Below are positions 1,825 through 14,099 of a stretch of DNA of 14,099 nt, piece by piece. How positions within the stretch are numbered: position 1 is the stretch's first letter; each line of letters opens with the position of its first letter. The DNA lies in the IMG/VR virus record IMGVR_UViG_3300032038_006501, positions 71,889-85,987 of that record; one strand, written 5' to 3'. The DNA is from a virus. Made by a program: the position numbers and the translations under genes. Below the pieces are notes generated by a model. It saw nothing but the letters and a program-made list of their open reading frames with translations, ran no database searches and was not told where the DNA came from.

Positions 1825-2136
1825 ATGGATGAAAACGAAATGATAGTGTGTGAGTTTCTACGCAAAATTGCACCGCCACGCGAGTGGAAATACCTTGGCG
1901 AAGTCGAGCATTACTGGATTAGTCAACTTTGTGACGAGTTGAACAAGCAGCTCAAGGCTGAGAACGCCAAACTGCGCAAGTATGCCAAGCTGTACGCTGG
2001 CGCAGTCAAGATTATTTGTGACCTATGCCCATACTGCGATGACTTCGAGACATGTAAAGACACGGAGGTTGAGCCGATGAGTGAAGGATGCGCTCTGCAC
2101 ATGGAAATGTGCGAACTTGGAATCGAGATAGACTAG
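1825..2136 (+). CDS. Hypothetical Cys-rich small protein B (103 aa)
   Basis: GC-rich codon usage (CTG, GCC, CGC). Cys-rich (CDLCPYCDDFETC...). The C-terminus ...MCELGIEID lies in the repeat. TAGATG junction with gene C. Confidence 0.6.
   Translation: MDENEMIVCEFLRKIAPPREWKYLGEVEHYWISQLCDELNKQLKAENAKLRKYAKLYAGAVKIICDLCPYCDDFETCKDTEVEPMSEGCALHMEMCELGIEID
2111..2129 (+). repeat. Junction repeat copy 2: GCGAACTTGGAATCGAGAT
   Basis: 16 of 19 positions identical to copy 1, including the TG(T/C)GCG lead-in. Confidence 0.8.
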
Positions 2137-2430
2137 ATGGCTAAGTATGTTGGCTTCAAGATTGGCAAAGTACATGAAAGCCATGTAATCAGTGAATACT
2201 ACTGTGGCAGTTGCGGGTTTCCCGTCACTGACCACGACAGCTTTTGCCCAGAATGCGGTGGAGCATTTCACGAGTGCGACGTAAGCAATCTCGAAAACGA
2301 GAATAAAAAGTTGCGGGAGTTGATTGACGAAGTACACGAGATGCTTTACACTGATAGGGCTGGTATGTTCCATAAGTTGATTCTTTCAGAATTGGAAGAT
2401 GGTATGCGCGAACTTGGAATTGAGGTATAA
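2137..2430 (+). CDS. Hypothetical zinc-ribbon small protein C (97 aa)
   Basis: CGSCG...CPECGG pattern (two CxxC pairs). The C-terminus ...MRELGIEV lies in the repeat. The TAA stop is followed one nt later by the next ATG. Confidence 0.6.
   Translation: MAKYVGFKIGKVHESHVISEYYCGSCGFPVTDHDSFCPECGGAFHECDVSNLENENKKLRELIDEVHEMLYTDRAGMFHKLILSELEDGMRELGIEV
2408..2426 (+). repeat. Junction repeat copy 3: GCGAACTTGGAATTGAGGT
   Basis: Third copy. The GAGGTA within it serves as SD for gene D. Confidence 0.8.
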
Positions 2431-2431
2431 A

Positions 2432-2779
2432 ATGGATGATTGTATGAGTTTTCCGCCATTATGGCAAGACTTCGTTGCAAAGTACCAATTTCGAGACAGA
2501 GAAGAGGTCTATACCAACGGCTCGAAACTGATACCTGTATTTCGCATCGAGCAGATGATGGAGCATTACCACGAGCATATTGAAGAAGAAAACGAAAAAC
2601 TCAAAATGCAGGTCGAAGCATTAAAGAATTATGCGCACGTTTTAAAGCTGTGCAAGGATCAAGCCTATTTGTGTGAATACTGCACATTTAATGGTATCGA
2701 TTTCGAACACAACGATATCAATTGCACTATCAATTTCAGCAAATTGCGAAAAAAGGCAGGGATGCAGAAAGAAAATTGA
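2432..2779 (+). CDS. Hypothetical Cys-containing small protein D (115 aa). It ends at TGA 2777-2779 in the standard code, and 4 codons later at TAA 2789-2791 if TGA is read as Trp.
   Basis: ATG 2432 with the GAGGTA SD is preferred over the overlapping track start at 2399. Last gene of the GC-rich block. Confidence 0.5.
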   Translation: MDDCMSFPPLWQDFVAKYQFRDREEVYTNGSKLIPVFRIEQMMEHYHEHIEEENEKLKMQVEALKNYAHVLKLCKDQAYLCEYCTFNGIDFEHNDINCTINFSKLRKKAGMQKEN

Positions 2780-2793
2780 GGAGATAATTAATA

Positions 2794-3402
2794 ATGGATA
2801 AAGTTACTATTATAGAAATTACCGAACATCCAATTGAAATTATTTCAAAAGGAGCAGGAACTAGCTATAAAAAAATTAATAATTCGTGACAAAGAGTTCA
2901 AACATGTATTAAAAATGGACATTTATCTGTAACTGAGTTTGCTCATATTAATTTTAAAATTGATGGAATTTCAAGAAGCTGTTTAGCACAATTAACTCGT
3001 CATCGTCTAATGTCTTTTTGTGTTGAATCTCAACGTTATGTCAAATATAATTTTAAAGATAATAATTGATATGTAATGCCAAAGGCTTTTAAAAAATCTA
3101 ATGCTTGAACTAGAAGATATATTTATGAAATGCGTAATGCAGCTTTAAGTTATAGACAAGCTATAGAAGATGGTATTAAACCAGAAGATGCTAGATTTCT
3201 TCTCCCAGAAGCAACAAAAACAAATTTAACTTGCGGGATGAATCTTAGAGAGTTTTTTAATTTTCTTAATTTAAGGCTTGATCCGCATGCACAATGAGAA
3301 ATTAGAGAATTGGCAGAAGAAATGTTTAATCAAGTATTAAATTATAATAATGAATGAAAAACTATTCTATCCTATTGGAAAGAAACTTGTTTTAATAAAT
3401 AA
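2794..3402 (+). CDS. thyX: Flavin-dependent thymidylate synthase ThyX (202 aa), intact only under translation table 4 (five in-frame TGA codons)
   Basis: SD GGAGAT upstream. The ThyX signature motif RHR-x7-S is present ([16 protein letters not shown]). Upstream matches include [15 protein letters not shown] (~ GHETPFEHIVFTFHV in Thermotoga ThyX). [15 protein letters not shown] aligns with T. maritima NFLNLRADSHAQWEI, and the W there is encoded by TGA. The standard-code track shows only sub-threshold fragments. Confidence 0.85.
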
Positions 3403-3645: not shown

Positions 3646-4212
3646 ATGATTACTCAATATTCTTTTGGATTGAATACTCATGCAAGCAAGAATAATAATG
3701 TAAAAGATATTTGGAAAACTTGGAGTTGTGAAGAGATCCGTGCAGATTTACAACCCAATAGAAGTGCAATGATTAATATTTGTCAAAATTTAACTTCTGA
3801 TTTTAATAAAGGTACAATTATTAGAAGTCACAACGCTTTTCTTGGTAAAAGTGTATATATGATAGGTAAAAGAAAATATGATAAAAGAGGTGCTGTAGGT
3901 ACTTATCATTTAGAAACAGTTTATCATGCAGATACTTTTGAAGAAGTATTTACTTTATTAAAATCTCAAGGATATTTAATTTTGGCTGTTGATAATATTG
4001 AAAAATATAATCCAATAGCATTGAATGAAATAAGACTTCCATATTCTACTGCATTTGTTTATGGAGAAGAAAATGCGGGATTAGATGAAAAAACTATTAA
4101 GATGTGTGATGCTATGGTCTATATTAAGAATATTGGAAGTGTGCGGTCAATGAATGTAGGATGTGCCGCGAGCTGTTGTATGTATGAATATTCAAAACAA
4201 TGGAGGATATAA
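3646..4212 (+). CDS. SPOUT-class (SpoU/TrmH/TrmL family) RNA 2'-O-ribose methyltransferase (188 aa)
   Basis: The three SpoU motifs are present: NKGTIIRSHNAFLGKSVYMIG (N.G.IIR..A.G), FVYGEENAGLDEKTI (vFG.E..GL) and VYIKNIGSVRSMNVGCAASCCMYEY (IPM.G..RS.N...A..I..YE). The SPOUT core (~150 aa) is TrmL-sized, with a ~40-aa N-terminal extension. Confidence 0.8.
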   Translation: MITQYSFGLNTHASKNNNVKDIWKTWSCEEIRADLQPNRSAMINICQNLTSDFNKGTIIRSHNAFLGKSVYMIGKRKYDKRGAVGTYHLETVYHADTFEEVFTLLKSQGYLILAVDNIEKYNPIALNEIRLPYSTAFVYGEENAGLDEKTIKMCDAMVYIKNIGSVRSMNVGCAASCCMYEYSKQWRI

Positions 4213-4213
4213 A

Positions 4214-4948
4214 ATGAATCGAGCTAAAAGTCCTATGACTTATTATTCTAGTGATTTTCATTTTGGACATAATAGTCAATGGATTGATAATGATGGAATT
4301 CTACATAATCGAGGAATTATTACTTTTGAACGTCATCAATTTAAAACTATTAAAGAGCATGATGTCTATCTTATTCAATTAATCACAAATTGGTCTCAAC
4401 GCTGGGCAAAAGGTTCTGTTTTTTGGTTCCTTGGAGACTGGGGAAGTTTAGAATATCTTTGGATTATTCAACTTTTAAAAGATAATGGAATTGTTACTAA
4501 GATGATTCTTGGTAATCATGATTCTGTTTCTGATATCCCAATTTTTAAGCAATATTTTGATGAAGTTTATCAATATCCAGTCTTTATTTCTCAAAAACTG
4601 GTTCTTTCTCATTTTCCTGTAGCTGTTTATCCCGACCAAATTAATGTATGCGGTCATTTGCATGGAAGTAAATTAAAAGATGATAATCATGTCATAGCTT
4701 CTATTCATGTAGCTAATTATAATGCAATTTCTGATAAGAATCTTGCAGCAACTTTTAGTAAACTTCCAAAATTCACTCGTCGTTTTCTCTACGAGCCTTG
4801 GGCCGCAGATTATGTTTTTATTCAACCTAAAGAAGATGTAGTAATGGATAGAAATGGCAATATTGATCTTTCTGCATCTAGACTACTTCAAAGATTTAAT
4901 AAAGAAAAAAGGGATAAGAATGACCCTTATCAACCTTTTGTAGGATAA
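4214..4948 (+). CDS. Calcineurin-like metallophosphoesterase (244 aa), translationally coupled to the methyltransferase
   Basis: ATG 4214 lies 1 nt after the upstream stop, with GGAGGA as SD. The track's longer start at 4163 is rejected. Motifs SDFHFGH (DxH), GDWG (GDxx), GNHD and GHLHG (GHxH) are present. Confidence 0.8.
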   Translation: MNRAKSPMTYYSSDFHFGHNSQWIDNDGILHNRGIITFERHQFKTIKEHDVYLIQLITNWSQRWAKGSVFWFLGDWGSLEYLWIIQLLKDNGIVTKMILGNHDSVSDIPIFKQYFDEVYQYPVFISQKLVLSHFPVAVYPDQINVCGHLHGSKLKDDNHVIASIHVANYNAISDKNLAATFSKLPKFTRRFLYEPWAADYVFIQPKEDVVMDRNGNIDLSASRLLQRFNKEKRDKNDPYQPFVG

Positions 4949-6023: not shown

Positions 6024-6386
6024 ATGCCTTATAGCATGAAACCAATAGTTGGAATAATTGGTAGTAGGTCAATTACAACTTTAAATTTAGATTTATTTAT
6101 AGATAAAACTCATGTTGGAGAAATAGTAAGTGGCGGAGCTAATGGTGTAGATAAAATTGCAGAAAATTGAGCTAAAAAAAATAAAATCGAGTTTATTGCA
6201 ATGTTACCTAATTATAAATTATTAGGAAGTCATTGAGCTCCACTAAAAAGAGATGAAGATATTGTAGATTATTGTGATTTAATTATTTGCTTTTGAGATA
6301 CAAAATCTTCTGGTAGTAAATATACTATAAATTATGCCTTAAAAACAAGTAAACAAATCATTTTACATGAAATTATAGACAGATAG
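6024..6386 (+). CDS. SLOG-family protein (DUF2493 / DprA-Smf-like Rossmann fold), 120 aa; requires three TGA read as Trp
   Basis: Translation under code 4 is MPYSMKPIVGIIGSRSITTLNLDLF...VSGGANGVDKIAENW AKKNKIEFIAMLPNYKLLGSHW APLKRDEDIVDYCDLIICFW DTKSSGSKYTINYALK. The GSR...GGA.G.D..A..WA...........G.RN pattern is typical of phage DUF2493 proteins. Confidence 0.6.
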
Positions 6387-6591: not shown

Positions 6592-6842
6592 TTTTAAATA
6601 GACCATTAAAGTCGTTATGCAAAAGCTAGACTTAGTCTTGGTCAGACTCTTGATTAATCAACTATACAGAGATTAATTAATGTTTGCTGCGGAAGGTAGA
6701 AAAGTTTAATTGTATAGAATTTAAAATAAGCCGCGTAAAAACTTTTCTCGAAGGAAATTTCTTTTAAAGGTTTTGAATAACATGCGTAGTTGGATAATAA
6801 ATGAAAAACCTTTTTCTAATTTATTTTTTATGAAAGGTTAAA
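6592..6842. other. 250-nt non-coding island with several inverted repeats; candidate ncRNA, regulatory element or origin-like element
   Basis: Stop codons in all six frames even under code 4. Paired segments include AGAAAAGTTT (6698-6707) with AAACTTTTCT (6739-6748), CTATACAG with TTGTATAG, and AGTCT-TGGTC-AGACT. It is the only gap longer than 120 nt in this compact stretch. Confidence 0.3.
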
Positions 6843-7031
6843 ATGTACGAAGAATATTATGATGAGTTTGAAGAATTTGATTCTTTTGAAAAAATTTCTC
6901 ATCAAATTCCAAAAGGTTTTAAAGGAAATAAACATTATAAATCAAATCAAGATAAATATAAAGCTCGTCGTAAGGCAAAAACCCAAGAGAAACAAAGAAT
7001 GATAGAAAATCAACAATCTTTTTATGAATAG
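6843..7031 (+). CDS. Small charged hypothetical protein (62 aa)
   Basis: SD AAAGGTTAAA upstream. Acidic N-terminus and basic C-terminus. Confidence 0.45.
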   Translation: MYEEYYDEFEEFDSFEKISHQIPKGFKGNKHYKSNQDKYKARRKAKTQEKQRMIENQQSFYE

Positions 7032-7039
7032 AGGTTGTT

Positions 7040-7828
7040 ATGGAAAGTAATATTAAAAAAAGAGTAAGTCAGCATTTGCGGGAAGCCATAGATAAAGATG
7101 CTGTAACTGAAAAAGGTTGATTTATTATAGCTCCATATGGTTCTATGAATTATGGCTTATATGACTATGATAGTGATGTAGATAGTAAAATTATTAAAGT
7201 TCCTAATATGAAGGAAATTATAAAAAATATAGGCTCACGTGGAAGCTTGACCCGCACGCTTAATTTTAATAATGAAAAAATAGAAATTAAAGATACAAGA
7301 GAATTTTTTCGTATTCTTAAAACAGGTTCTATTAATTTTATGGAAATTTTATTTTCAGATTATATTCAAGTAAATTCTTTATATGAGGAAGAGTGGAATT
7401 TACTTTGTAGCAAAAGAGAAGCTTTAGCTTATGCATATCCTGAAAATACATTATCTTCTTCTCTTGGAATGGCTAAAACAAAATATCGTAATTTAGAGAA
7501 ACAAGATTATGATAATTGTAATTTAAAAGATTTTATGACTCTTATGAGATTAGAATTTTTTGTAAAAAACTATCTTGAAAAGGTTCCTTATAAAAAATGT
7601 ATTACTGTTGAAGATTTACCAGAAGTTCAAGAATTATGGCTAAAATTTAAACATCAAAAAACAATAAATGTTGAAGGTTTTAATCGTATTTTATTAGAAG
7701 CTCAATTAATTGTTTCTAGAATAGCAAGTATGGTAGAAAATAGTAATATGAAAACTGATTATTCTATGGATAATTTTATATATGATATTAATAATAAATT
7801 AATTTTAAAGAGAATTAAGGAGACTTAA
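7040..7828 (+). CDS. Pol-beta-superfamily nucleotidyltransferase (262 aa). The true start is ATG 7040, upstream of the track's 7145, and reaching it requires TGA 7118-7120 read as Trp.
   Basis: SD AGAGGT lies 5 nt upstream of ATG 7040. The N-terminus MESNIKKRVSQHLREAIDKDAVTEKGW FIIAPYGSMNYGLYDYDSDVD carries the hG[GS]-x9-13-DxD nucleotidyltransferase signature (GS...SDVD). Its stop sits immediately before the GTG of the next gene (TAAGTG). Confidence 0.7.
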
Positions 7829-8266
7829 GTGAAAAATCAAATTCTAAAAGATTTTTGGGATGCAGAAAATGGAATTTGTGAACTGGTTGTACTAAATAAA
7901 TGGGGAAAATTTTCCGCAAAAGCAATTTGTTCAAAAGAAGATAAAGATGTTCTTAGTTATTGGACTGGAATTCATCTTTGTGAATATAAAATTTTAATTA
8001 AAACTCTTCAAGCAAAAGCTTTAGCATTTGATCAGCGAGTTATTGGTATTAAACATGCTATTAATGTTTTACACAATATTGATTCTCAAGCTAAATGGTG
8101 TGCAAAAACAAATGGAGATAGCTATTTTAATCTTTGGTGCTGTGTAGAAGCTACTGAACTAGAAGCTAAAAAAATTCGTGCTAAAATTAAAGAACTTAAA
8201 AAAGATTATCCTATTTATGCAGAATATTTAATTAGTTCTAAAAGAAAAATTTCAAATAAAGATTAA
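7829..8266 (+). CDS. Hypothetical 145-aa protein coupled to the nucleotidyltransferase; contains an R-x5-H motif (QRVIGIKHAIN) that could be HEPN-like
   Basis: GTG start with AAGGAG 8 nt upstream. Tightly coupled to the nucleotidyltransferase. No definitive motif; the HEPN suggestion rests only on the R-x5-H motif. Confidence 0.55.
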   Translation: MKNQILKDFWDAENGICELVVLNKWGKFSAKAICSKEDKDVLSYWTGIHLCEYKILIKTLQAKALAFDQRVIGIKHAINVLHNIDSQAKWCAKTNGDSYFNLWCCVEATELEAKKIRAKIKELKKDYPIYAEYLISSKRKISNKD

Positions 8267-8280
8267 AAGGAGTTTTTAAA

Positions 8281-9051
8281 ATGAGTGGTCGTATTTTTGT
8301 AGTAGCTGATATTCATGGCTCTGCGGCCGTAGTAAAAAATATTATTTCTTTAATTGGCAACCCAAGACCGGATGATGTTATTATTGTCGCTGGAGATGCT
8401 GGTTTTGAGTATGGTAAACATATTATGGGTTCTGCAAAAAGGGCTGCTCATAGATTTGTTGGTAAATGGATTGTTATGAGAGGTAATCATGACAATTGTT
8501 ATCAAGATAATCATACTCATTGGGATGAAGAAAAACAAAATTATGATTTAGATGCTGGATGGTCTTGGGCAGAGGATGGATATTCTTTATATCAAAACAA
8601 ATATCCTAATATTTTATATGTTCCTGATAGTGGAGGAATTTTAAAAATTAAAGATTTTAATTTTCTTTTTTGTCCAGGAGCTTATTCTATAGATAAGATG
8701 TATCGTTTAAGAATGAATTATCCTTATAATTTTAATGAGCAGCTATCTGTAGAAGATATGAATAAACTAATTGATATTGTTAAAAATTGGAATAAAAATG
8801 GTTTTGATATTGATTATGTAATTGGACATACTTTTCCACTTTATTTAGAGCGTCACTATCGTGATTTATTCATGTCTGGTATTTCTCAAACCTCTATAGA
8901 TAAAACTACAGAAAAATGGTTAGATATTATCAGTGAAGAATATGAAAGAAATCCTGCTTTTAAACAATATTATGGTGGACATTTTCATAATTCTCGCGTT
9001 TTAGATGATAAATATACTATGGTTTATCAAACTCCAGTTCAAATTGTTTAA
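8281..9051 (+). CDS. Calcineurin-like metallophosphoesterase (256 aa), second copy of this fold in the window
   Basis: VVADIHGS (DxHG), VAGDAGFEYG (GDxx), MRGNHDN (GNHD), IGHTF and GGHFHNS (GHxH). SD AAGGAG upstream. Confidence 0.8.
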   Translation: MSGRIFVVADIHGSAAVVKNIISLIGNPRPDDVIIVAGDAGFEYGKHIMGSAKRAAHRFVGKWIVMRGNHDNCYQDNHTHWDEEKQNYDLDAGWSWAEDGYSLYQNKYPNILYVPDSGGILKIKDFNFLFCPGAYSIDKMYRLRMNYPYNFNEQLSVEDMNKLIDIVKNWNKNGFDIDYVIGHTFPLYLERHYRDLFMSGISQTSIDKTTEKWLDIISEEYERNPAFKQYYGGHFHNSRVLDDKYTMVYQTPVQIV

Positions 9052-9064
9052 ACCTTCTTTCTAA

Positions 9065-9100
9065 TGGTCTAAATTTCATTAAATTTAGGCCATTTTTTTT
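9065..9100 (+). terminator. Rho-independent terminator
   Basis: TGGTCTAAATTT-CATT-AAATTTAGGCCA forms a 12-bp stem (one T.G wobble). A T8 run follows at 9093-9100. Confidence 0.7.
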
Positions 9101-9103
9101 CTT

Positions 9104-9133
9104 TTGACAGTTATTAAAATTTTTTGATATAAT
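9104..9133 (+). promoter_or_regulatory. sigma70-like promoter: TTGACA, 18-nt spacer, TGaTATAAT
   Basis: TTGACA at 9104-9109 and TGATATAAT at 9125-9133. Same architecture as the 5231 promoter, directly after the terminator. Confidence 0.55.
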
Positions 9134-9163: not shown

Positions 9164-11074
9164 TTGAATAATTTTTATAAAAACGACTCAATTGAGTCAC
9201 TTACTCCACGAGAACATGTTAGACTTCGTCCAGGAATGTACGCGGGAGATACCAGTGATGCAACACAACTTGCAATAGAAATTTTGGGAAATTCTATTGA
9301 TGAGTTTAATATTGGTCATGGAGATTTAATCGAAATTTATATAAATCCCGATTGGATTGATGAACAAAATGTTATTCTAATTCGCGATCATGGTCAGGGG
9401 TTTCCGATAAATGTTCAACGAGATGATGGAGAAACAGTTCTTCAAGCTTCTTTTGATGTTATTAATACTTCTGGTAAATATCGTGATGACGGTGTGTATG
9501 AAGGAACGGCAATTGGTTTAAATGGAATTGGAGCAAAATTAACTAATTTTCTTTCTCATAAATTGAATGTAGTTTCTTTCGATGATGAAGGTAATTTTGA
9601 GTCTATTTTTTTTACAGAAGGAATTTTTGAAAAAAGAGAAACAGGAAAATTAATTCATGCTTCTGGTACAGAAGTAGCTTTTATTCCCAGTGAAGAATTT
9701 TTTACTTCACCTACAATAAATGAGAAAAAGTTAAAAGATTTTTGTGAAGATATTACTTGTTTATGTGAAGGTCTTACTATTATTTTTAATAATGAGACTA
9801 TTAAGCATGAAAATGGTATTCAAGATTTATTAATTAAACATCTTGGTAAAGAAATTGAAATTCTTAATAATCCATTATTTATCCAAGAGAAGAGAAATAA
9901 ACAAGCTATTTCATTAGGACTAACTTATACAAGTAAAGGTTCTTCTACTATTATTCCTTATGTTAATTGTGGATTAACATCATCTGGCCCGCATATTACA
10001 GCTATTAAATCAACAATTACACGTGTTTTAAATAAATGGGCAAAAGAACAAGGAATATTAAAAGCTAAAGATAAAAATTTAGATGGTTCTTCTCTTCAAG
10101 AAGGATTAATTTTAGTTGCTAACATTACAGCAGAAAATGTAGCTTATAATGCTCAAATTAAATCTACAATTACTAAAATTGATACTAGTTTTATAAATAC
10201 TATACTTGCGGAGCAGCTTGAAATTTGGCTTGATAATAATGTTGAAGATGGTACTAAAATTATTGAAAAAGCTCTTATAGCTCGTAAAGCCGCAGAAGCT
10301 GCTAAGAAAGCTAGAGAGCAAGTCAAAAATAAAGCAAATAAATCTGAAAAAAAGAAAAATATTCAACTACCTACAACTTTAACAGATTGTTGGAGCAAAG
10401 ATAGAACAAAATGTGAATTATTAATTTGCGAAGGTAAGTCAGCTGCATCTGGATTAGTAGCAGCAAGAGATAGTGAGATACAAGCAGTTTATGGTGTTAG
10501 AGGGAAAATGTTAAGCGTTTTAAAAACAGCTCCCGCAAATATTTATAAAAATAAAGAAATTAATAATTTAGTTCAAGCTCTTGGATTACCGGTTAATTCT
10601 GCGGATTGTAAATTAACATATGACGCATCTAAACTTCGTTATGGAAAAATTATAGCTTGTGCAGATGCAGATCCAGACGGTTCAGCTATTGAAAACTTAC
10701 TATTTAATATTTTATGGTATATGTGTCCAGAACTAATAATTAATGGTCATGTTTATTCAGCAGTACCACCTCTTTATAAAGTAATTACTAATAAAAATGA
10801 GTATATTTATCTTAAAGGGGATAAAGAGTTAAAAGAATGTCAACAAAATTGTACTATTAAGACGATAAATCGTTTAAAGGGACTTGGCGAAATGGACTCA
10901 ACAGAGCTTAACGAAACTCTATTAGATCCAATCACAAGACAAGTTTTACAACTTGAAGTAAAAGATTTTAAAGAAACTGATAAAATTTTTACAGATCTTT
11001 ATGGTAAAGTAGTTGAACCAAGAATTAAATTTTTACAAGAGCATGGAGAGGAAGCGAGAGCTGATTATGAATAG
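9164..11074 (+). CDS. Type II DNA topoisomerase large subunit, GyrB-like, with ATPase, transducer and Toprim domains fused (636 aa; compare the T2/T6-type fused gp39+gp60)
   Basis: TTG start with GAGAGGTG SD. N-terminus EHVRLRPGMYAGDT resembles GyrB VRKRPGMYIGDT. GHKL ATPase boxes are present: EILGNSIDE, IRDHGQGFP, GLNGIGAKLTNFLS. ARKAAEAAKKARE...LPTTLTDC resembles the GyrB transducer end. Toprim motifs ELLICEGKSAASG and CADADPDGSAI are present. Confidence 0.9.
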   Translation: MNNFYKNDSIESLTPREHVRLRPGMYAGDTSDATQLAIEILGNSIDEFNIGHGDLIEIYINPDWIDEQNVILIRDHGQGFPINVQRDDGETVLQASFDVINTSGKYRDDGVYEGTAIGLNGIGAKLTNFLSHKLNVVSFDDEGNFESIFFTEGIFEKRETGKLIHASGTEVAFIPSEEFFTSPTINEKKLKDFCEDITCLCEGLTIIFNNETIKHENGIQDLLIKHLGKEIEILNNPLFIQEKRNKQAISLGLTYTSKGSSTIIPYVNCGLTSSGPHITAIKSTITRVLNKWAKEQGILKAKDKNLDGSSLQEGLILVANITAENVAYNAQIKSTITKIDTSFINTILAEQLEIWLDNNVEDGTKIIEKALIARKAAEAAKKAREQVKNKANKSEKKKNIQLPTTLTDCWSKDRTKCELLICEGKSAASGLVAARDSEIQAVYGVRGKMLSVLKTAPANIYKNKEINNLVQALGLPVNSADCKLTYDASKLRYGKIIACADADPDGSAIENLLFNILWYMCPELIINGHVYSAVPPLYKVITNKNEYIYLKGDKELKECQQNCTIKTINRLKGLGEMDSTELNETLLDPITRQVLQLEVKDFKETDKIFTDLYGKVVEPRIKFLQEHGEEARADYE

Positions 11075-13166
11075 TATTAATGTTATTTCAGAGATTTCTC
11101 AAAACTTTCTTGATTCATCTCTTGAAACAAATATGAATAGAGCTTTTCCGAATATTTTAGACGGTTTAAAACCCGGTCAACGCGCTTGTATTTGGGAAAT
11201 GTATATAAAGAAATATACAAGCAAAAAACCTCATGTAAAATCTGCTAAAGTAAGTGGTGGTGTTATTGCTGATTTATGGCCACACTCTGATGTAGCTATT
11301 TATGAAACTTTTGCTCGTATGTCTCAACCATTTATTAATAATATTCCTGAAATTGATTGGCATGGAGCAAATGGTAATCCTATTCTTGGTGGAGATGCTT
11401 TAGCAAATCAACGTTATACCGAATGTCGTTTAGCAGCTATTACAGAAGATGGTATGCTTCAAGGAATTAATAAAAATAATGTAGATATGATTCCTAACTT
11501 TAGTGAAGATGCTAAATGGCCTAAGGTATTACCAGCAATCTTTCCTCGTCTTCTTGTTAACGGAGCACAAGGAATTGGAGTATCTTTATCAAATACTTGG
11601 CTTTGTCATAATTTTACCGAAACAGCCCAATTAATTTTTGATTATATCCGCACAGGAATTGTGGATAATGATAATTATTATCCTGATTTCCCAACAGGTG
11701 GAATTATAGTAAATAAAAAAGATTTACCAGAAATTAATAAAACTGGTAAAGGTAAAGTTATTATTGAAAGTAAATATACTATTAATGGAAATGAAATTAA
11801 TTTTTCAGAACTTCCTTATCAAGTATATATTGAACCAGTAATTGATGAAATTAAAAAAGGAATCCAAGAGGGTAAGATTACTGGAATTCAAGAAATTTAT
11901 AATAAATCTGATAAAAATAGAATTCTTTTAACTATTGAGTGTGAAAATAATTATAGTCCAGAACAAGTAGTTCTTCAATTATTTGAAAGCACTAATCTTC
12001 GTAAACAATATAATGCTAATCAAAATGGTATTATTAGTAAAACTCCAATTATGATTACTCTTGAGCAATATCTTCAAGAATATGTTAAACATAATCTTAA
12101 TTGTATTAAAAGAGAATTTCAATATGATTTAAACGAAACAAGTGAAAAAATTGAAATTCTTGAAGGATTAGTAAAAGCTTTAGAAGATATTGATAATATT
12201 ATTCAAACAATTAAACAGAGTAAAAATACTTCAGAAGCTAAAATTAATTTAATTAATAGATTCAATTCTACAGAATTACAAGCAGATGCAATTCTTAAAA
12301 TGAGACTTAGTAAATTAGCAAATATGGAAAAAATTGCTATTAATAATGAGCTCCAAGAGAAAAAGGAATTTGCATTATATTGTGCGGGAATTGTTGAATC
12401 AACAGATAAACAAAAAGAAGTTCTAATTAATAGATTAGAAGAACTTGTTAAAAAATATGGAGACAAGCGCCGCACACAAGTAATTCAAAAAGAAATTGCT
12501 TCTAAAGATAAGAAGAAAAAAGAAAAAGTTATTAAAGATGTAGTTATTACTTATGATGAAAAAGGTTATTTACAAAATATTCCTATTTCTATGTATAAGA
12601 AAATTGGGACTAAAGTAAATGTCCTTAAAATGAAGTCGAATGAATTATTTTTACTTTTCTCTTCTCTTGGACGAATTTTTAAAGTAAGAGCAGAAGAGAT
12701 TAAAGAATGCGGGAATCGAGATAAAGGTCAGGCAGTTGGAACTATTTTAAGCCTCGCCCCGCAAGAAAAGATTCTAAATATTTTTAATATGGGAATAGAT
12801 AAAAAACATCCTTATATTATTTTCTTTACTAAATATGGTTTAATAAAAAAGACTAATAAAGATATTTGGATTACAACAACTCAAAATAAAAAGGGAATGA
12901 AAGGAATTTCTCTTAGAGAAAATGATTCTATTGTAGGAGTTTTTGAAAGCAATGGAGATTTAGCGATTGTTAAAAGTAAAACTCATATTATTAAATTTGA
13001 AGTAGAATTTATTAGAGCTACTAAAAATGGATATGGAGTAAAAGCTATTTCTCTTGATGAAGATGATATAGTAGAAAGTGTAGAGATTATTCCTAAAAAT
13101 TCTATTAAATATAATAATATTAAAGTTCAAAGTCATGGTGGCAGAGGAGTTCTTATTCATGTCTAG
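11067..13166 (+). CDS. Type II DNA topoisomerase subunit, GyrA/ParC-like (T4 gp52-like), with a truncated beta-pinwheel C-terminal domain (699 aa)
   Basis: ATG 11067 overlaps the upstream stop (ATGAATAG). This start is preferred over the track's TTG at 11013 because it leaves a 23-aa lead before NRAFPNILDGLKPGQR (compare T4 gp52 NRAIPNMIDGFKPVQR). The catalytic Tyr context NQRYTECRL resembles GyrA RYTE. C-terminal GyrA-box-like blades are present: KGQAVGTILSL..., KGMKGISLREND..., NGYGVKAISLDEDD. Confidence 0.88.
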   Translation: MNSINVISEISQNFLDSSLETNMNRAFPNILDGLKPGQRACIWEMYIKKYTSKKPHVKSAKVSGGVIADLWPHSDVAIYETFARMSQPFINNIPEIDWHGANGNPILGGDALANQRYTECRLAAITEDGMLQGINKNNVDMIPNFSEDAKWPKVLPAIFPRLLVNGAQGIGVSLSNTWLCHNFTETAQLIFDYIRTGIVDNDNYYPDFPTGGIIVNKKDLPEINKTGKGKVIIESKYTINGNEINFSELPYQVYIEPVIDEIKKGIQEGKITGIQEIYNKSDKNRILLTIECENNYSPEQVVLQLFESTNLRKQYNANQNGIISKTPIMITLEQYLQEYVKHNLNCIKREFQYDLNETSEKIEILEGLVKALEDIDNIIQTIKQSKNTSEAKINLINRFNSTELQADAILKMRLSKLANMEKIAINNELQEKKEFALYCAGIVESTDKQKEVLINRLEELVKKYGDKRRTQVIQKEIASKDKKKKEKVIKDVVITYDEKGYLQNIPISMYKKIGTKVNVLKMKSNELFLLFSSLGRIFKVRAEEIKECGNRDKGQAVGTILSLAPQEKILNIFNMGIDKKHPYIIFFTKYGLIKKTNKDIWITTTQNKKGMKGISLRENDSIVGVFESNGDLAIVKSKTHIIKFEVEFIRATKNGYGVKAISLDEDDIVESVEIIPKNSIKYNNIKVQSHGGRGVLIHV

Positions 13167-14099
13167 TTTATATCCAGAATCTTGGCAAATTCCACCTATG
13201 AAATATTGTTCTAAAGCATCTGATAAAGCCGCAAGACAAGCTTTCGAATCAGGTGATTTTATCATGCAAGAAAAATATGACGGAGCTTTATATCAATTAG
13301 AGAAAACTGATTCTGGATATATTTATTTATTTTCTAGAACAAAATCTCGTAAAACAGGAGAGCTTGTAGAAAAGTCTGATAACTTTCCTCATATTAAGAA
13401 ATGGGCTGAATGGGCTATTCCAAATGGAACTATTCTTGTAGGTGAAATTTATGTAGAAGGTGGACATTCTAATGATGTGACTAAATTATCTGGATGTTTA
13501 CCTCAAAATGCAGTTAAACGTCAGTTTGATTCAAATGAATATGGCGGTCCTGTAAAATATAAAGTATTTGATATTATTAGATTTGCAGGAGAAGATATTC
13601 AAAATAAACCGACTATTGAAAGAATTGATAATTATTTAAATAATACTAGTTTAGATTATTCTTTTTCTGATAGATATGTACAAAGAGTAACTACTTATTA
13701 TGATAATTTTGAAGAACGACTTCAACAAATTTTTAAAAATGGTGGAGAAGGTGCTGTTTTTAAAAATAAAAATTGTCCATATCGTGCGGGAAAACGCTCA
13801 ACTGTATCTCAGGCTTTTAAGTGGAAACAACATTTAGATTCTATTGATTTAATTTGTACAGAATTAATAGACCCAGAAGATTATTATACGGGAAAAGAAA
13901 TTGAAAGTTGGCCTTATTGGATGGAACATTCAAAAACAATTAATAAAGAAAATTTATGGTATCCAATATATGGCTTATATTATGAAAAATATAAAAAACG
14001 CCCGCATGTATATAAACCAGTAACAAAGCCAGCGTATTTTGGTTGGAAAAATGCTATGGCTCTTGGATGCTTTAATAAAAAAGGAGCAATTGTTCATGT
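13159..14099 (+). CDS. ATP-dependent DNA ligase, 3' truncated by the window end (313 codons visible)
   Basis: ATG 13159 overlaps the topoisomerase stop (ATGTCTAG). Motif I is KYDGAL (K-x-D-G). Motif III is LVGEIYV. Motif IV is EGAVFK, followed by CPYRAGKRS. Motif V is AFKWK. The long IV-V spacing with GKRS matches T7-type DNA ligases rather than Rnl1. Confidence 0.8.
   Translation, partial: MSSLYPESWQIPPMKYCSKASDKAARQAFESGDFIMQEKYDGALYQLEKTDSGYIYLFSRTKSRKTGELVEKSDNFPHIKKWAEWAIPNGTILVGEIYVEGGHSNDVTKLSGCLPQNAVKRQFDSNEYGGPVKYKVFDIIRFAGEDIQNKPTIERIDNYLNNTSLDYSFSDRYVQRVTTYYDNFEERLQQIFKNGGEGAVFKNKNCPYRAGKRSTVSQAFKWKQHLDSIDLICTELIDPEDYYTGKEIESWPYWMEHSKTINKENLWYPIYGLYYEKYKKRPHVYKPVTKPAYFGWKNAMALGCFNKKGAIVH

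Follow-up and report, generated by a model that had tools for sequence, protein, structure and literature searches.

We analysed a three-gene cluster at positions 7040–9051 of a 14,099-nucleotide stretch of viral DNA (positions 71,889 to 85,987 of IMG/VR record IMGVR_UViG_3300032038_006501; the whole stretch is referred to below as the window). The cluster encodes a nucleotidyltransferase (NTase) that, by its sequence, belongs to the RlaP family, a 145-amino-acid protein of an unnamed phage family (p145), and a calcineurin-like metallophosphoesterase (MPE). We consider it probable (roughly 0.6) that the cluster belongs to an RNA-repair island, acting probably on tRNA, in a low-GC phage of ~150 kb that uses genetic code 4. 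Most likely it represents, in divergent form, a known kind of system, the phage RlaP-type RNA-repair cassette, with one new element, the conserved pairing of the MPE with p145. A first-pass annotation of the same DNA was mostly right in what it observed in the sequence and wrong in its functional interpretation. Its speculative call of a toxin–antitoxin pair or of a cyclic oligonucleotide-based antiphage signalling system (CBASS) gives way to a concrete, testable assignment, a counter-defence RNA-repair module of the phage.

The NTase gene lies on the plus strand (7040–7828, ATG 7040 to TAA 7826–7828) and encodes 262 amino acids under translation table 4. Its sole in-frame TGA is codon 27 (7118–7120), through which the first-pass annotation had read, as Trp, to reach the N-terminus. 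This reading is borne out, because the same codon is TGG in two 93–95% identical relatives (IMG/VR contigs L004 and L005); it is TGG also in a 28% identical homologue (L007), and TGA in the window and in the 97.5% identical metagenomic contig L001. Under table 11 the open reading frame (ORF) would begin only at codon 36 (ATG 7145). The active-site motif, G34-S35-x9-S45-D46-V47-D48, had been placed upstream of that start; this holds for G34-S35, which lies there with the N-terminal helix and the first strand only, but not for SDVD (codons 45–48, nucleotides 7172–7183), which lies downstream. The first-pass annotation had staked its reading on conservation of the extension, and the N-terminal 35 residues are indeed conserved in homologues down to 24% identity (consensus ..KRV.EHL......F.IA.YGSMNYGL.D..SDVD.K). 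An AGAGG ribosome-binding site precedes ATG 7040, and none precedes ATG 7145. Judged from these sequence features, the restored N-terminus is real. The further claim that standard annotation misses the motif was overstated, since the 262-amino-acid product is already present in a public gene call on the 97.5% identical 150-kb contig (P0006).

The NTase is of the Pol-beta type, as had been claimed. It carries the Pol-beta signature of G-[GS], D-x-D and a third strictly conserved Asp, with G34-S35, D46, D48 and D85 as the predicted catalytic residues, and in the alignment of homologues G34, S35, D46, D48, K84, D85, R87 and E102 are invariant. For comparison, the RlaP of Pseudomonas fluorescens (PfRlaP) has been described as having ‘three strictly conserved aspartic acids’ (PMC12776372). 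Profile comparisons place the NTase in the RlaP family (PF10127), together with T4 NrdC.11. The protein matches Pfam PF10127 (RlaP, ‘RNA repair pathway DNA polymerase beta family’) with 23.8 bits at a cut-off of 23 (E 4.2e-5) and PHROG 388, nucleotidyltransferase, with E 2.1e-12. PF10127 is matched by six of the eight aligned homologues (best E 1.7e-6), and the homologue in L006 bears PF10127 as a weak precomputed label. A profile of the NTase family aligned with T4 NrdC.11 in hhalign with a probability of 93.6% (E 2.1e-7, 111 columns), and a preprint on RlaP likewise puts NrdC.11 in this family (PMC12776372). RlaP enzymes have a C-terminal helical domain that, with the NTase domain, makes the cleft for RNA and NTP; the Pfam alignment ends at profile position 159 of 249, and a conserved R170-L171 and the total length would be compatible with RlaP. 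The NTase had no match in PADLOC, to the SMODS/CD-NTase families of Pfam, or to CCA-adding enzymes or poly(A) polymerases. Its profiles found nothing significant in the PDB, of which the copy searched apparently lacks PfRlaP; a weak match of the core was to the minimal nucleotidyltransferase (MNT) antitoxin 5yep (E 0.053).

Among named phages, the closest RlaP homologue (29% identity) is that of Phage Phass-1, a gut phage of the ‘code 15 clade’ (L002, OQ749652, 5983–6807). Shortly downstream of it is an array of 10 or more tRNA genes, and its neighbourhood is otherwise unannotated.

The biochemistry of RlaP dates from December 2025 and concerns bacterial enzymes only, from P. fluorescens and P. 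aeruginosa (PMC12776372). RlaP adds one or two nucleoside monophosphates onto the 3′-OH of RNA, prefers a mimic of cleaved tRNA, and refuses both 3′-phosphorylated RNA and DNA; it has been proposed to put back the nucleotides that ‘smart’ ribotoxins, RloC among them, cut out (PMC12776372). As RlaP takes only a 3′-OH and not a 3′-phosphate, a 3′-phosphoesterase is required upstream of it. In a comparative study of jumbo phages, RlaP was the most prevalent repair NTase, and calcineurin-like and HD phosphatases were found occasionally to supply 3′-end healing in a few phages (PMC7824862).

A second metallophosphoesterase had been said to follow in the cluster, and it does: the MPE gene (8281–9051, plus strand, 256 amino acids) matches PF00149 with E 2.6e-13 and belongs to phrog_1649, the first metallophosphoesterase of the window being at 4211–4948. 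The motifs expected of PF00149 (DxH, GD, GNH[DE], H, GHxH) are all present, as D10/H12, G38-D39, G68-N69-H70-D71, H183 and H234/H236. Since all five metal-binding motifs are invariant in the orthologues, the MPE is probably catalytically active. We infer that it is a putative RNA 3′-end-healing enzyme, which would convert a 2′,3′-cyclic phosphate or a 3′-phosphate to a 3′-OH, because its gene is linked to those of RlaP, RNA ligase (Rnl) and kinase/HD proteins and because RlaP needs a 3′-OH. Against PADLOC, the MPE gave only a non-significant match to PDC-S10 (E 0.0038).

The p145 gene (7829–8266, plus strand) starts with GTG 7829, which abuts the TAA of the NTase gene at 7826–7828. The stop-to-start junction (TAAGTG) noted at first is thus as described, and the three genes are tightly packed, with a gap of 0 nucleotides between NTase and p145 and of 14 between p145 and MPE. 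An AAGGAG Shine–Dalgarno sequence (7817–7822) stands 6 nucleotides upstream of the GTG. Word-indexed searches found only relatives that are at least 90% identical, and an exhaustive HMMER search found a family of 96 representatives of clusters defined at 50% identity (118–174 amino acids, E<=1e-3). In an alignment of 68 sequences G26 and D38 are invariant, and G47, R70 and G73 are at least 90% conserved; K24, E37, D40 and K63 are further conserved residues. An AlphaFold model built on this alignment (predicted local distance difference test, pLDDT, 93.8; predicted template modelling score, pTM, 0.85) has a three-stranded beta-meander (residues 4–33), a short helix (36–41) that bears the invariant Asp (E37-D38-x-D40), and an antiparallel coiled-coil hairpin of two long helices (44–87 and 92–144). 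An earlier model, from five near-identical sequences, reached a pLDDT of only 53 and was discarded. We found no Pfam, PHROG, NCBIfam or PADLOC family for p145, and no consistent match in Pfam and PHROG scans of all 68 members. The profile matched only coiled-coil noise among PDB sequences, and tblastn of p145 and of one distant member against phage records found no match.

An R-x5-H motif in p145 had been taken as a possible HEPN nuclease signature. The string is there (R70-x5-H76), but as a signature it fails: R70 is found in 63 of the 68 sequences and the His in only 23, so that the catalytic R-x4-6-H is not conserved in the family, and R-x4-6-H strings arise in 17% of shuffles of p145. Nor is the modelled fold the all-alpha, four-helix up-down bundle of HEPN. 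From the predicted fold and the unconserved His it follows that p145 is not a HEPN protein; it stands for an unnamed family of phage proteins.

We compared the neighbourhoods of the cluster in related phages, using local hidden Markov models of RlaP, p145, MPE, RNA ligase, kinase, GyrB/GyrA, SLOG and dCMP deaminase. The map holds 30 loci, retrieved via homologues of p145, the MPE and the ligase, whose p145 sequences form 15 lineages at 70% identity and are 21–36% identical to p145 of the window. An orthologue of the MPE is no more than three genes away from p145 in 12 of 13 informative lineages, and the two genes adjoin each other in all 11 loci anchored on the MPE. The order of the pair flips, being p145–MPE in the window and in L023–26 and MPE–p145 elsewhere. 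RlaP was found in only seven lineages. It lies directly upstream of the MPE gene, often overlapping it, in L006, L007, L008, L021, L027 and L028. These overlaps suggest that translation of the two genes is coupled in six lineages; in the lineage of the window, p145 lies between RlaP and MPE. The NTase is not an obligate companion of p145, which has no NTase nearby in L009, L014, L015–17, L020, L022, L023–26 and L032. On the evidence of these gene neighbourhoods, the evolutionary partner of p145 is the phosphoesterase rather than the NTase. The most economical guess is, therefore, that p145 is an accessory or regulatory subunit, either a regulator or a substrate-binding arm.

Where RlaP is absent, RNA ligase is near: the order is MPE–p145–Rnl (PF09414) in L009, L015, L017, L020 and L022, and in L023–26 the ligase is 3–4 kb away. 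L032 has the order MPE–p145–67-amino-acid protein–AAA_33/HD kinase–Rnl1 (PF09511). L021 reads RlaP–MPE–p145–AAA_33 kinase, the C-terminus of the kinase being HD-like by eye, with no Pfam HD match there. Independent support comes from the cultured Lysinibacillus phage LC76P1, which encodes a distant homologue of RlaP flanked by an RNA ligase on one side and a kinase/HD protein on the other.

These observations suggest the following scheme. Host ribotoxins such as anticodon nucleases would cut tRNA, leaving a 2′,3′-cyclic or 3′-phosphate end, as described in the literature for such toxins, sometimes with the loss of a nucleotide. The 256-amino-acid MPE would then strip the 3′ phosphate to give a 3′-OH, onto which the NTase, if it acts like the Pseudomonas RlaP to which its sequence relates it, would refill one or two nucleotides. 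Finally, an RNA ligase, with a 5′ kinase where needed, would be supplied from elsewhere in the ~150-kb genome and seal the break; ligases are present in the same island of relatives. Direct coupling of a phage RlaP to a 3′-phosphoesterase would explain the source of its obligatory 3′-OH substrate. It is also possible, though doubtful, that p145 is a dedicated subunit of a phage RNA-end-healing MPE, its hairpin serving as a tRNA-docking or regulatory arm, and that RlaP–MPE–p145 forms a self-contained ‘trim and refill’ unit against nucleotide-excising anticodon nucleases in a clade of 125–150-kb gut/rumen-type phages. With 96 clusters and no Pfam or PHROG family, the p145 family is a cheap target in the search for a new RNA-repair component.

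Several observations weigh against a role in RNA repair. The Pfam RlaP match is marginal and spans profile positions 26–159 of 249, and PDB searches with the MPE sequence and with its profile gave only sub-threshold matches, the best solved relatives being ApaH-like 2qjc (E 0.037) and lambda phosphatase (E 0.08). We detected neither an RNA ligase nor a polynucleotide kinase in the 14 kb of the window and in 20.5 kb of the near-identical L001. When the 150-kb contig was the target of a search with a ligase profile, none of the matches listed was on that contig, although L032 came to light in this way. In L014, p145 stands alone upstream of gyrB, without MPE or RlaP. The module is located in a DNA-metabolism region, and the related loci all belong to a single phage lineage that shares a backbone (dCMP deaminase–SLOG–...–gyrB–gyrA–DNA ligase), so some of the adjacency may be inherited synteny.

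We therefore weighed other explanations. The module might process DNA ends, the MPE being an Mre11/SbcD-like nuclease or a DNA 3′-phosphatase with p145 as its coiled-coil partner, and act with the topoisomerase II and the ATP-dependent DNA ligase in replication or repair. Its position between dCMP deaminase/SLOG and gyrB–gyrA–DNA ligase fits this, as does that of p145 immediately upstream of gyrB in L006, L011, L013 and L014, and the MPE profile has a weak match to SbcD in the PDB search (E 1.7). However, where MPE–p145 is apart from gyrB (loci of the L009 type and L032), it stays with RNA ligases and with the polynucleotide kinase/HD protein, and RlaP enzymes are inactive on DNA (PMC12776372). 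The coiled-coil matches are generic, p145 has no ATPase domain, and the MPE, with 256 amino acids in total, has no Mre11 capping domain. We regard DNA-end processing as unlikely.

Similarly improbable is that the three genes are unrelated neighbours in a conserved early/middle block, where RlaP alone would repair RNA, the MPE would be a generic phosphatase (a NinI-like protein phosphatase or an Ap4A hydrolase), and p145 would have nothing to do with either. All loci do come from a single syntenic phage lineage, distant MPE homologues occur without p145 and RlaP (for example in the Oscillospirales phage PV036458), and there is a weak PHROG match of the MPE to NinI-like proteins (E 0.0047). Against mere synteny stand an MPE–p145 adjacency that outlasts inversion of the gene order and turnover of the flanks at only 21–36% identity of p145, and the overlaps of RlaP and MPE genes.

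Nucleotide signalling, in which the NTase would make, or the MPE destroy, cyclic nucleotide messengers in a CBASS-like system or its evasion, had been raised by the first-pass annotation, and we consider it very unlikely. Signalling systems that combine an NTase with a phosphoesterase are known, cyclic-nucleotide phosphodiesterases exist among MPEs, and the MPE of the window has a weak match, below the cut-off, to the NCBIfam YfcE phosphodiesterase (E 8.9e-4). Against this, neither NTase nor p145 has a match in PADLOC, the NTase matches RlaP instead of CD-NTases, no effector or sensor genes are present nearby, and the genomic context is one of RNA repair. The NTase–HEPN toxin–antitoxin or abortive infection (Abi) pair proposed at first is scarcely credible: the abutting genes, the R-x5-H string and the 5yep match speak for it, but p145 does not have the fold, the NTase is twice the size of an MNT, the pairing is not conserved and PADLOC has no match. 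That p145 is not HEPN-like and that the NTase resembles an RNA 3′-end-adding enzyme is, in essence, the outcome that the first-pass annotation had itself named as fatal to its proposal.

On the genetic code, the window is informative well beyond the NTase. Several of its genes are broken under table 11, and the gaps close under table 4. ThyX (2794–3402, plus strand; Pfam Thy1, E 1.9e-50) is obtained by reading through five in-frame TGA codons, and a SLOG/DprA-like (YAcAr) small protein (6024–6386, plus strand) needs three TGA codons to be read as Trp. Two of the latter, W49 and W91, are encoded by TGA in the window, where L007 and L014 have TGG, and all differences between strains at in-frame TGA codons are exchanges of TGA and TGG. 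In total the window has 13 in-frame TGA and 51 TGG codons, and no gene in it terminates in TGA. With in-frame TGA at the TGG (Trp) positions of homologues and no gene ended by TGA, TGA is Trp in this phage, as proven at the codon level. The case shows cleanly, codon by codon, that an uncultured phage has recoded TGA to Trp, and annotation with table 11 would cut short the NTase active site and break ThyX and SLOG.

The use of TGA is very uneven across the window. ThyX has five TGA and one TGG, and SLOG three TGA and no TGG, whereas the topoisomerase II subunits, the DNA ligase, both phosphoesterases and p145 have 0 TGA versus 37 TGG; this contrast is drawn between 2794–3402, 6024–6386 and 1105–1404 on the one side and 9164–14099 on the other.

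The window has a GC content of 27–30%, and its plus strand carries all substantial ORFs. As a whole (14 kb), it had no megablast match among 50,697 phage records, and its wider context comes from L001, a contig of 150,451 bp (ena:ERZ27291698:k119_1280448). The gene order there is GIY-YIG, LPXTG pilin-like protein, ThyX, SpoU methylase, first metallophosphoesterase, dCMP deaminase, SLOG, the three cluster genes, GyrB-like and GyrA-like topoisomerase II, ATP-dependent DNA ligase and DnaB helicase. By this gene content, the surroundings of the cluster are a nucleic-acid-metabolism region of a large phage.

Downstream of the MPE gene, a predicted intrinsic terminator (9063–9094 or, in a wider delimitation, 9063–9104, plus strand; a 14-bp stem, a 4-nucleotide loop and a T-run) closes the transcription unit. 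It is followed, ahead of the GyrB-like gene, by a sigma-70 promoter, TTGACA-18-TATAAT with a TG extension (9104–9133, plus strand; 12/12 match), which drives the topoisomerase II genes and therefore marks a boundary and lies outside the module. This promoter is the sole 12/12 match in 3.7 kb and comes directly after the strong terminator. On the other side, the 250-nucleotide intergenic gap at 6592–6842 had no Rfam match and folded no better than its shuffles (z −0.47). It precedes a small acidic/basic ORF (6843–7031), after which the NTase gene begins.

Other features of the window and its relatives are as follows. The ORF at 165–476 is the C-terminus of a 602-amino-acid SpaA/Gram-positive pilin-like protein (1785–3593 of L001) whose end, LPSTG followed by a hydrophobic stretch and a KKNKK tail, is a sortase anchor signal; a sortase-anchored pilin-like gene encoded by the phage is therefore a hint of a Gram-positive host. 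A GC-rich island at 1500–2800 (0.39–0.43, versus 0.27–0.30 elsewhere) holds tandem small Cys-rich ORFs (1537–1824, 1825–2136 and 2137–2430) with a common C-terminal ELGI(E/K)(V/I), and L001, elsewhere 97.5% identical, has 196 bp in place of 577 bp of the window (1978–2554). A SpoU-family RNA 2′-O-methyltransferase gene (3646–4212, E 2.7e-21) overlaps the start of the first metallophosphoesterase gene (4211–4948; phrog_547, E 1.7e-22, and a weak PdeM-like match), and the two may be another pair related to RNA or DNA ends. The SLOG protein matches the ShosA model of the PADLOC Shosha system (8.6e-9), and its gene is kept beside that of dCMP deaminase throughout the phage lineage. Among the relatives, a 488-amino-acid TROVE/Ro60-like protein (L009, 9197–10663) and a 799-amino-acid protein with a major-vault-protein shoulder domain (PF11978; L032, 5623–8022) are encoded near RNA-repair genes. 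The GyrB-like gene is split in L011 (1420–4441), L014 (6455–8680) and L028 (3200–6379); in L011 a GIY-YIG endonuclease gene lies between its ATPase and Toprim parts.

Among known systems, the cluster resembles HEPN–MNT pairs in that a Pol-beta NTase gene adjoins that of a small protein which is mostly helical and contains an R-x5-H string. It differs from them in that p145 is modelled as a beta-meander with a two-helix hairpin and has an unconserved His, that the NTase has 262 amino acids and the RlaP architecture rather than the ~100–140 amino acids of a minimal NTase, and that the pairing is not conserved. With stop-codon-recoded (TGA to Trp, code 4) phages the window shares a sense TGA, interchange of TGA and TGG, and the absence of genes ended by TGA, whereas its TGA codons are concentrated in a few nucleotide-metabolism genes and absent from the long topoisomerase and ligase genes.

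With the RlaP family, represented by Pseudomonas RlaP and T4 NrdC.11, the NTase has in common the Pol-beta core (G-S, D-x-D and one further invariant Asp), a size of about 260–340 amino acids, the Pfam and hhalign matches, and the linkage of relatives to RNA ligases and end-healing enzymes. The NTase of the window is nonetheless very divergent, being just above the Pfam cut-off and without BLAST similarity to T4, and it has no ligase within reach; the genes linked to it are those of a calcineurin-like phosphoesterase and p145, while in Pseudomonas the gene lies between RtcB and RtcA. With bacterial Pnkp/Hen1 and T4 Pnkp plus Rnl1, the cluster would share the heal-then-seal logic for tRNA cut by ribotoxins, and the phosphatase domain of the Clostridium thermocellum Pnkp is also a binuclear metallophosphoesterase (for background, see PMC12776372 and PMC7824862). 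Unlike in these systems, the kinase and the ligase are not found in the window, although the relatives of the phage carry the AAA_33 kinase/HD protein and Rnl1 or PF09414 ligases beside MPE–p145. The cluster differs from them also in that the predicted functions reside on separate small proteins and not on one multidomain Pnkp, that there is no Hen1, and that it would add a fill-in step by RlaP and the extra subunit p145.

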